DNA of 41,364 nt, taken from the IMG/VR virus record IMGVR_UViG_2909257012_000006, positions 1 through 41,364 of that record, one strand, 5' to 3'. Position 1 is the stretch's first letter. Each line of letters opens with the position of its first letter. Below are positions 32,889-36,355 of the stretch, one piece after another. This stretch comes from a virus (Duplodnaviria > Heunggongvirae > Uroviricota > Caudoviricetes). A model generated the notes under the pieces. It was not told the origin of the DNA and searched no databases. It was given only the letters and a program-made list of their open reading frames with translations. A program made the translations under genes and the position numbers.

Positions 32889-33542
32889 ATGAAATGGTAT
32901 GAACTGGCTAGATCCAGAATGAAAGAGCTCGGCATAACTCAAGAGAAGTTAGCTGAAGAGCTTGGTATGACGCAGGGTGGAATTGGTCACTGGTTGCGCG
33001 GATCTCGTCATCCATCTCTTGACGAGATTGGTGTGGTATTTAAATACCTTGGTATTGATAACGTCTCATTCAACCACGACGGTACATTTTCACCTGTTGG
33101 CGAATACTCATCTGCCCCCGTTAAAAAACAATATGAGTACCCTGTTTTTTCTCATGTTCAGGCCGGGATGTTCTCGCCTGAGCTTAGAACCTTTACCAAA
33201 GGTGATGCGGAGAGATGGGTTAGCACAACCAAAAAAGCCAGTGATTGTGCGTTTTGGCTTGAAGTTGAAGGTAATTCCATGACCGCGCCAACAGGATCCA
33301 AGCCAAGCTTTCCTGACGGGATGTTAATTCTCGTTGACCCTGAGCAGGCTGTTGAGCCAGGTGATTTCTGCATAGCCAGACTTGGTGGTGACGAGTTTAC
33401 CTTCAAGAAACTGATCAGGGATAGCGGTCAGGTGTTCCTACAACCACTAAACCCGCAATATCCAATGATCCCATGCAATGATAGCTGTTCCGTAGTAGGG
33501 AAAGTTATCGCCAGCCAGTGGCCTGAAGAGACATTTAGTTAA
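32889..33542 (+). CDS. cI: CI prophage repressor: novel N-terminal HTH domain fused to lambda-CI-type C-terminal S24 domain
   Basis: C-terminal ~130 aa ([39 protein letters not shown]...) near-identical to recalled lambda CI; N-terminal HTH differs. Confidence 0.9.
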
Positions 33543-33604: not shown

Positions 33605-33667
33605 AAAATATAAATCAATAAAATACAAAGTGTTATAAAAAACCAACCATATTTAGAACATTTTGTA

Positions 33668-33696
33668 TTGACTCAATAAAGTACACATCGTACTAT
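33668..33696 (+). promoter_or_regulatory. pL-like sigma70 promoter (TTGACT-17 bp-TACTAT)
   Basis: Near-consensus hexamers with 17-bp spacer, immediately upstream of nutL. Confidence 0.7.
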
Positions 33697-33741
33697 TTAG
33701 CCATCAGCAGGAAGCTGGAAGCCAAACGGAACAGATTGGCA

Positions 33742-33776
33742 GGCTCTTTAACTTCGATGGGGCGCTGACAAAGCGC
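33742..33776 (+). promoter_or_regulatory. nutL (boxA GGCTCTTTA and P22-type boxB GCGCTGACAAAGCGC)
   Basis: boxB identical to recalled P22 nutL boxB; located downstream of pL. Confidence 0.7.
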
Positions 33777-33804
33777 AAACAGATACCAAACGAGATGGGT
33801 TTGG

Positions 33805-33887
33805 CGGTGTGTAGCTCAGCAGGTAGAGCGGATTCGTTGGCTAAGCCGTGGAATCGCGTCACCAGTTCAAGTCTGGTCACACCACCA
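33805..33887 (+). ncRNA. tRNA-like element with canonical acceptor, D and T arms but a 15-nt loop in place of the anticodon loop
   Basis: Hand fold: acceptor CGGTGTG/CACACCA (6/7 bp), D-arm GCTC-AGCAGGTA-GAGC, 5-bp stem GATTC/GAATC enclosing GTTGGCTAAGCCGTG, variable GCGTC, T-arm ACCAG-TTCAAGT-CTGGT; no encoded CCA in register. Confidence 0.45.
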
Positions 33888-33913
33888 AAGCCATTTCACA
33901 TGGAGAAAAGAAA

Positions 33914-34033
33914 ATGCTGGAAATTATCACCAACCCAATTCTCGGTGGGGCAATCATCACTTTCGCAATCGGCATCGGATTCACTATCTGGTCTGAAGTA
34001 GATGACTGGATGTGGGAGCGCAAAAACAAATAA
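33914..34033 (+). CDS. 39-aa single-pass membrane peptide
   Basis: GGAG RBS 8 nt upstream; MLEIITNPILGGAIITFAIGIGFTIWSEVDDWMWERKNK has one hydrophobic helix and charged tail. Confidence 0.4.
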   Translation: MLEIITNPILGGAIITFAIGIGFTIWSEVDDWMWERKNK

Positions 34034-34073
34034 TCATCGACACACATTCATGTGTGTCTTCACGGAGGTCATC

Positions 34074-34388
34074 ATGACGGTAATCGTATACGGAAAATCA
34101 ACATTTGCAGGAAATGCCAAAACTCGCCGTCATGAGCGGCGCAGAAAGCTGGCTATCGAGCGTGATTCCATCTGCAACATCATCGATTCGATCTTCGGCA
34201 CAGACAGTGAGGAAGCTGTTCAGGAAGAACCGAGAAAGCGTTTAAGCCTTTCTGAAAAAGCAATATCACTCGGCATCATTAGTAAATCAAATACAGATGC
34301 GAATGGCGGAAGCGTTTGCCTGCCCGAAGTTGCACTGTATGCTGCTGGTTACAGGTCAATGAAATCAATTACTGCGAGATATAAATGA
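34074..34388 (+). CDS. N-type antiterminator (P22 gene 24-like)
   Basis: MTVIVYGKSTFAGNAKTRRHERRRKLAIERD arginine-rich motif matches recalled P22 gp24; GGAGG RBS. Confidence 0.85.
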   Translation: MTVIVYGKSTFAGNAKTRRHERRRKLAIERDSICNIIDSIFGTDSEEAVQEEPRKRLSLSEKAISLGIISKSNTDANGGSVCLPEVALYAAGYRSMKSITARYK

Positions 34389-34651
34389 CTAGTAAACAAG
34401 TATCATATAAATGCTATTGCCCTTTATGTGGAAGAAAATTCAGCGCCAAGGCAGCATGGAAGCATATCAATGATTATCATCCAAAAGCATCAGAACGTGA
34501 GTTGATGATGATAAGAGATGTAAAACGAGAAAAAATTTCTTTCGCAACAAAGCCACTAAACGCCAACAAAAACGCAATATTGTATCAAATGCATCGTTCA
34601 AGTGGTCCAGATTATTCTGGAGGTCTTCCATCTCTTGGAAAGAAAAAATAA
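34385..34651 (+). CDS. Small protein with C2H2-type zinc-finger motif
   Basis: YKCYCPLCGRKFSAKAAWKHINDYH (C-x2-C-x12-H-x4-H); start overlaps N stop (ATGA). Confidence 0.6.
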   Translation: MTSKQVSYKCYCPLCGRKFSAKAAWKHINDYHPKASERELMMIRDVKREKISFATKPLNANKNAILYQMHRSSGPDYSGGLPSLGKKK

Positions 34652-35122: not shown

Positions 35123-35207
35123 TGGCACTAACAACTGAAGTGGTTTACTGAATTTGGCCACCTGAACAGAGGTGATATGCTCACCTCAGAACAACACAGG
35201 TGCCATA

Positions 35208-36355
<1,148 letters not shown>

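Follow-up and report, generated by a model that had tools for sequence, protein, structure and literature searches.

What a tRNA-like RNA is doing in the leader of a phage antiterminator gene is the question raised by this locus. The original prediction, made from the letters alone, described about 300 bp inserted in the pL leader between nutL and gene N and not expected in P22-like phages. It assigned to this DNA a cloverleaf that cannot decode and a small membrane peptide, possibly an RNA antitoxin and its toxin. The window, by which we mean the whole stretch of 41,364 nt that was analysed, is a lambdoid, P22-like prophage of E. coli. Its leader region is 100% identical to those of E. coli strains AR_0058 and EC20.

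Organization of the pL leader

A cI-type repressor gene ends at nt 33542 of the plus strand and is followed by a terminator and then by pL. The pL promoter and the P22-type nutL predicted upstream of the RNA are both in place (Table 1). Alignment with lambda pL sets the transcript start, and the two leaders also have CATCAGCAGGA in common. The nutL sequence is identical in the P22-like loci, and its boxB forms a hairpin in the folds.

A promoter scan identified pL as the sole promoter-like site on the plus strand of the region. Since this promoter is controlled by the repressor, the tRNA-like RNA and the ORF behind it should be silent in the lysogen. For the same reason the suggested role of the prophage in superinfection exclusion is unlikely.

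Further along the pL operon, downstream of N, lies an IS3-family element at about nt 35172–36355, annotated in AR_0058 as a frameshifted ISEc52. An 88-residue ORF (nt 34385–34651) overlaps the stop codon of N. It has a zinc-finger-like motif, CxxC...HxxxxH, and hits phrog_20899, a family with no assigned function.

Table 1. Features of the leader from pL to gene N, in nucleotide positions of the window.
Feature	Position	Strand	Basis or remark
pL-like promoter, TTGACT-17-TACTAT	33668–33696	+	9/12 consensus matches
Transcript start, AUCAGCAGG	near 33703	+	Alignment to lambda pL; common to lambda
nutL boxA, GCTCTTTAA	33743–33751	+	Sequence
nutL boxB, P22-type, GCGCTGACAAAGCGC (also written GCGCUGACAAAGCGC)	33762–33776	+	Sequence
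Alternative local hairpin, CCAAAC...GUUUGG	33785–33804	+	Fold of truncated leader
5′ arm of leader helix, GAGAUGG-G-UUUGG-C-GGUGUG	33792–33811	+	Folds, covariation; homologous to lambda +81..+96
tRNA-shaped apical domain, tRNA positions 1–74	33805–33886	+	ARAGORN, Rfam, RefSeq
Extended "anticodon" arm: GAUUC/GAAUC stem, 3x3 internal loop, GGC/GCC mini-stem, UAA triloop	33831–33855	+	
3′ arm of leader helix, CACACC-A-CCAAA-G-CCAUUUC	33878–33897	+	Folds, covariation; homologous to lambda +187..+203
Shine-Dalgarno GGAG	33902–33905	+	8 nt upstream of ORF
39-codon ORF, MLEIITNPILGGAIITFAIGIGFTIWSEVDDWMWERKNK, one hydrophobic stretch	33914–34033	+	phrog_7482
Perfect 8-bp hairpin, GACACACA-UUCA-UGUGUGUC	34039–34058	+ (reported on minus strand)	Between ORF stop and N Shine-Dalgarno
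N Shine-Dalgarno GGAGG	34064–34068	+	Sequence
Antiterminator N / gp24 gene	34074–34388	+	PF25694 N_peptide, 126 bits

Identity and fold of the tRNA-like RNA

ARAGORN and the Rfam tRNA model, both among the checks that the original prediction named for its cloverleaf, recognize the RNA. ARAGORN calls a tRNA at nt 33805–33886. In a scan limited to the region, the Rfam model RF00005 gives 38.2 bits (E 1.2e-6), above its gathering threshold of 29. The gathering scan of the whole window missed it, most likely through the speed filters. The RefSeq/PGAP label on the identical E. coli loci is tRNA-OTHER. ARAGORN found no tmRNA, and Rfam gave no match to tmRNA, Y RNA or another family. When the Rfam limit was relaxed to E ≤ 10 over nt 33650–34100, one chance snoRNA match appeared besides tRNA (Afu_191, 20.8 bits, far below gathering).

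The arms proposed for the cloverleaf are present, with an acceptor stem of 6 bp plus a C1.A72 mismatch, a D stem of 4 bp and a T stem of 5 bp. The sequence 3′ of A72 is CCAA. The nucleotides that make tertiary contacts in tRNA are found as well, namely U8, A14, G15/C48, G18G19, A21, G53-C61 and the T-loop UUCAAGU. In the minimum-energy fold of the whole leader, the cloverleaf sits on a long helix (z = -3.15).

The GAUUC/GAAUC stem also encloses the 15 nt that had been described, GUUGGCUAAGCCGUG (nt 33836–33850), which RF00005 aligns as an insert where the 7-nt anticodon loop belongs. This stretch contains GGC-UAA-GCC and resolves into a 3x3 internal loop, G-U-N / N-U-G, and the GGC/GCC mini-stem, leaving no readable 7-nt anticodon loop with U33. 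The transcript of nt 33805–33886 is a genuine tRNA-shaped RNA that is incapable of decoding, and on this point the earlier reading holds.

The leader helix and its lambda counterpart

The two arms that carry the cloverleaf pair over some 19 bp, interrupted by two mismatches, between the end of boxB at nt 33776 and the Shine-Dalgarno sequence at nt 33902. In every relative examined, which are P22, SE1, phage 21, HK620, Stx phages and lambda, nutL is separated from the first ribosome binding site by a long helix of some 20 bp. Across leader types the whole helix measures about 18–25 bp and has a bulge or mismatch mid-way. Its lower part changes by compensation from one leader type to another, as GAGAUGGGUUUGG/CCAAAGCCAUUUC, GUUGGCUUUGG/CCAAAGCUAAU and, in phage 21, UUGAGUGGUUUUGG/CCAAAGCCACUUAA.

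The N leader of lambda folds with GGCUUUGG at +81, GGUGUGUG at +89, an apex of about 90 nt, CACACACC at +187, A195 and CCAAAGCU at +196; the Shine-Dalgarno sequence is at +211 and the AUG at +223. The stem of this hairpin, GGCUUUGG-G-GUGUG...CACACC-A-CCAAAGC, is matched by the flanks in the window, where the counterpart reads UUUGG-C-GGUGUG ... CACACC-A-CCAAAGCC. On this homology, GGUGUG/CACACC, which serves the tRNA-like RNA as its acceptor stem, is the upper portion of the hairpin's conserved stem. The two hairpins occupy the same place, from nutL to the first ribosome binding site of the pL transcript, and share an alternative hairpin upstream as well as the stem sequence. They differ in the apex, which in lambda is unrelated in sequence to the cloverleaf of the window, and in the upper stem, which in the window doubles as a tRNA acceptor stem. 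The gene next to the hairpin also differs, being the 39-codon ORF in the window and not N.

A direct link between the two is provided by locus L131, which has a lambda-like N (MNAQERRRAARAEKQ...) and Shine-Dalgarno context. Its flanks are those of lambda except at two aligned positions, CAUUCAAAGCAG(C)A(A)GCUUUGGGGUGUGU ... CACACCACCAAAGCUAACUGACAGGAGAAU, with CA for lambda AG, and it carries the tRNA-like RNA in place of the apex of about 90 nt. The view of the RNA as an insert in the pL leader must be replaced: it fills the apical slot of a conserved layout of nutL, hairpin and ribosome binding site that is homologous to the N-leader hairpin of lambda.

In every leader type, the (G)UUUGG of the 5′ arm can pair alternatively with CCAAA(C/G) just 3′ of boxB. 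Folds of truncated leaders form this local hairpin in all six leader types, with covariation; besides the window, it was seen in lambda (+70..+87), phage 21 (L127), HK620 (L130), L131 and L132, and in phage 21 it covaries to ACCAGAAC/GUUUUGGG. The local hairpin may act as a switch or arise as an intermediate of co-transcriptional folding. The 3′-arm sequence recurs, as ACCAAAGCCATTTC, about 190 nt into the coding region of the P22-type gene 24 (L012, L039, L047), and thus the 5′ arm could pair there also.

Exchange of structured RNAs at the helix tip

Between the conserved flanks (GGGUUUGG ... ACCAAAGCCAUUUCACAUG), the interior of the nutL-to-N interval differs completely between phages. Scanning IMG/VR for the right flank yielded 120 loci, to which later scans added. 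The slot interiors from these scans fall into at least seven unrelated cassettes, A to G, and overall the tip of the helix is occupied by at least eight unrelated structured RNAs. The commonest is cassette A, of about 64 nt, which occurs in Stx phages, phage 21 and HK620. Cassette B is the tRNA-like RNA. The others are C (about 100 nt), D (about 86 nt, including SE1), E (about 109 nt), F (133 nt) and G (229 nt). Each cassette brings its own matching terminal (upper) helix, for instance GGUGAUGUG/CGCAUCACC, ACUGGCG/CGCCAGU, GUUGCAGGUAG/CUAUCUGCAAC and GAUUUGAUG/CAUCAAAUC, and covarying hairpins are found inside cassettes C and D too. Rfam scans of the non-tRNA cassettes (A, C and G, with E and F in bulk) matched no family.

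The claim that some 300 bp are unexpected in a P22-like phage fails here. P22 and its relatives all hold a structured RNA of 64–229 nt at this place, and the only extra part of this leader is the ORF module of about 160 nt.

The tRNA-like cassette was found in 2 of 5426 complete E. coli genomes, in a single sequenced phage, Salmonella phage P6, and in 21 IMG/VR contigs that represent eight sequence variants. The GTDB species representatives contained no copy. Two of the loci that carry it, L131 and L132, have an unrelated nutL and N, giving three leader types in all. A literature search for a tRNA-like element in an N leader found none.

Cassettes A and E (L129, L006, L003), otherwise unrelated, have in common a hairpin of 5 bp whose 9-nt loops are similar, AGAUCAGCA / AGAUCGACA. 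This hairpin directly adjoins the 3′ strand of the closing helix, and the loop GAAGAU(C/A)AGCA hardly varies among P22-type leaders, phage 21 and HK620. At locus L046, a type C cassette is followed by an arginine-rich 60-residue ORF (MRKPKTTTKTIIHFTLKRRPEG...) and there is no P22-type N; the ORF may encode another type of antiterminator.

Two further ideas about the slot were set aside. The prophage small RNAs AgvB, AsxR and Pas are located at the pR′ moron site, not in the N leader. The reading of all cassettes as RNase P substrates with an ACCA acceptor end is weakened, as the upper helix has 6–11 bp and not a constant 7, and weakened further by the bulged base, which is G in phage 21 and HK620.

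The 39-codon ORF

The membrane-peptide ORF predicted behind GGAG is present, with its single hydrophobic stretch, and matches the phrog_7482 profile over its full length (residues 1–39, E 1e-22). A comparison of seven distinct nucleotide versions gave variable sites in the ratio 12:5:2 at codon positions 3:1:2. Given this coding-like pattern, the ORF is very likely translated. Its homologs keep an N-terminal TNPILGG and a C-terminal DDWMWERKNK motif. The ORF has no Pfam or PADLOC match, PADLOC found nothing significant in the ORF and its neighbours, and tblastn of the ORF against sequenced phages gave no match.

The ORF and the tRNA-like RNA are distributed independently. Only four of the 24 tRNA-like loci have the ORF; the other 20 have N directly after the hairpin, an order also seen in the Salmonella P22-like set. 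The ORF is found behind cassettes E, F and G also. Where present it adjoins the hairpin, and N comes after a perfect 8-bp hairpin which, with sequence changes, is kept in the other ORF-bearing loci. The ORF is a separate, optional gene between the leader hairpin and N.

The ORF is unannotated by PGAP in AR_0058. A 61-residue "hypothetical protein" of E. albertii in NCBI and UniRef (nt 33848–34033; P0001) is the 39-residue ORF extended from a GTG within the tRNA-like RNA.

Origin and variation of the tRNA body

A pattern scan with the D arm and T arm found ordinary phage tRNAs, nearly all of them tRNA-Thr. The D arm (alignment columns 8–25, 18 nt, UAGCUCAGCAGGUAGAGC) and a stretch covering part of the variable loop and the T arm (columns 54–73, 20 nt, GUCACCAGUUCAAGUCUGGU) are both identical to the tRNA-Thr(GGU) of IMG/VR contig L162. 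This identity with a genuine phage tRNA places the resemblance beyond chance. In the alignment compared with L162, the cloverleaf pairing is kept in 94.9% of cells, against 31–43% when the partners are slid, and 12 cloverleaf pairs change on both sides. The arm identity and the pairing counts indicate a body of tRNA-Thr type, which, judged from these sequences, is grafted onto the hairpin's own GGUGUG/CACACC stem. The search for a donor yielded generic tRNA-Thr relatives, L162 being the closest, and no specific donor.

Phage tRNA-Thr genes (GGU/UGU) share the D arm and the variable-loop/T-arm stretch with the tRNA-like RNA. Unlike theirs, its acceptor stem is the hairpin stem (C1.A72, G2-C71) and its anticodon arm is an 11-layer arm with a triloop. 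The identity elements of E. coli tRNA-Thr are G1-C72, C2-G71, G35 and U36; these are absent from the tRNA-like RNA.

The tertiary-contact nucleotides are invariant in all eight sequence variants. Most changes affect the distal part of the anticodon arm and those T-loop positions that are least constrained. In the T stem, one pair changes from A-U to G-C by compensation, and two singleton variants break a pair.

Predicted RNase III processing and P22B

The N-leader hairpin of lambda is a textbook case of post-transcriptional control, in which RNase III links early expression and the choice between lysis and lysogeny to the growth of the host. Wilson et al. (2002) reportedly described a leader in which NUTL is followed by a hairpin sensitive to RNase III and then by the N ribosome binding site, with cleavage relieving the N-mediated repression of N translation; the name of Kameyama et al. 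(1991) is reportedly also connected with this RNase III-sensitive hairpin. The lambda cuts, which we take to be at 88/89 and 197/198, leave the expected 2-nt 3′ overhang when placed on the computed helix. The part of PMC5371410 that cites Steege et al. 1987 treats the lambda N gene leader as an established RNase III target.

Transferred to the window by homology, the cuts would fall after G33804 and after C33886. The predicted product would be the 82 nt from 33805 to 33886, tRNA positions 1–74. The 5′ end of this product would be exactly tRNA +1 and its 3′ end would be ...A72-C73-C74, which the CCA-adding enzyme could in principle extend. The action of RNase P on the tRNA-like RNA may be hindered by the extended helix.

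A small RNA of 96 nt, P22B, was detected by small-RNA sequencing of P22-infected Salmonella at 642 reads per million in the cytosol, with its 3′ end 16 nt before the AUG of gene 24 (Naaz et al. 2026, PMC13397905). Its sequence is that of cassette C plus the 3′ arm ...ACCAAAGCCAUUUCA, from which it follows that P22 too fills the slot and that the slot gives rise to a discrete, stable RNA that accumulates. P22B and the tRNA-like RNA originate in one and the same slot of a single leader family and share the 3′ arm, but the two have no similarity in sequence or fold. The ends of P22B are not at the lambda-type RNase III sites. The RNA spans the predicted 3′ cut (ACC/AAAGCC, the slash marking the cut) and stops at the helix base, evidence that, at least for cassette C in Salmonella, this is not the main site of cutting. 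The residues beside the predicted cut are lambda-like in cassettes B, F and G and not in C; the cassettes may thus differ in RNase III cutting.

The arrangement has analogs elsewhere. In the leader-trailer helices of rRNA operons, a nut-like site precedes a long-range RNase III helix that encloses a structured RNA. The C4 RNA of P1/P7, the tRNA-like domain of tmRNA and mascRNA are tRNA-shaped elements that define RNA ends. None of these has a sequence relation to the tRNA-like RNA.

Proposed mechanism and alternatives

We consider it probable that the tRNA-like RNA is the apical domain of an N-leader hairpin that is processed by RNase III and controls early translation. On infection or induction pL would fire, and boxA and boxB would be transcribed next. 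At first, while the 3′ arm has yet to be made, the 5′ arm would be kept in the small local hairpin; the cloverleaf would fold after this stage. The 3′ arm would then close the helix (nt 33792–33811 with 33878–33897), bringing nutL beside the ribosome binding site. RNase III would, by homology with lambda, cut at the two predicted sites and separate the downstream mRNA, with the ORF and then N, from the nutL-bound N, which would set the level of early translation. The same cut would release the 82-nt tRNA-shaped RNA. The suggestion that the RNA could affect N-dependent early expression gains from its position, as the hairpin sits between nutL and N in the pL transcript. The tRNA shape of the apex perhaps adds a function of its own. 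The rarity of the tRNA-like variant speaks against the hairpin-apex explanation, and a purely cis-acting structural role leaves the kept tertiary-contact nucleotides and the T-stem pairing unexplained.

Those features would be accounted for if the apex is an exchangeable small-RNA locus whose RNase III-released, CCA-completed cloverleaf acts in trans as a tRNA mimic. As the first product of infection it could bind or titrate a host or defence factor that reads the tRNA elbow or acceptor end, and the locus would make different small RNAs from its other cassettes. The tertiary-contact nucleotides, UUCAA of the T-loop included, are kept in eight of eight variants, the T-stem change is compensatory, and variation is mostly confined to the distal anticodon arm. 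The cassette has reached leaders with unrelated nutL and N (L131, L132), the predicted RNase III ends are tRNA positions 1 and 74, the slot is hypervariable, and P22B is a stable small RNA from the same slot in P22. Yet without an anticodon loop the RNA cannot imitate the substrate of an anticodon nuclease, no target is known, and PADLOC shows no defence-related match nearby. The cassette is also rare, and its variants are few and closely related, such that their conservation may reflect recent transfer. We regard a mimic acting in trans as a rather unlikely proposal.

The opposite reading, that a decayed tRNA-Thr copy merely caps the hairpin as neutral filler, any stable fold being sufficient and the tRNA shape functionless, appears to us doubtful. 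It would suit the destroyed anticodon loop, the drift of the loop sequence, the rarity of the variant and the at least eight unrelated apices that work in the same helix. It does not fit D and T arms identical to those of working tRNA-Thr genes, the compensatory change in the T stem, the exactness of the graft, or the spread of the cassette to three leader types.

The RNA and the small, hydrophobic and conserved peptide are adjacent on one transcript, which invites the idea of an RNA antitoxin with a 39-residue toxin, or of an otherwise coupled module. The original prediction raised such a pair, and this part of it is very improbable. The distributions of the two are independent, as seen in the 20 of 24 tRNA-like loci without the ORF and in the ORFs behind cassettes B, E, F and G. 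The RNA is encoded on the same strand and hence is not antisense to the ORF, it is not a repeat array, and neither product is expected in a lysogen, with the repressor-shut pL as the sole promoter-like site. Least credible of all is a working decoding tRNA with a short intron or an expanded loop: ARAGORN does assign an anticodon (tRNA-Pro, UGG), but the "Pro" label is an artefact of the long loop, which has 15 nt, the called anticodon is not constant across variants (tgg, ggg), the tRNA body is Thr-like rather than Pro-like, C1.A72 is mismatched, PGAP labels the RNA tRNA-OTHER, and we know of no bacterial mechanism for removing an 8-nt insert.

Implications

The results correct the annotation of the locus: the RNAs labeled "tRNA-OTHER" or "tRNA-Pro" are non-decoding, and the 61-residue protein is a mis-started 39-codon gene. 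More broadly, they indicate that P22-like, 21-like, HK620-like, Stx and lambda-like phages all have an exchangeable slot at the tip of the N-leader helix, and one of its occupants is a complete tRNA body with predicted cut sites at the tRNA ends. The cassettes form a natural set of variants for asking what the apex contributes to the hairpin and whether the excised RNAs have functions of their own.
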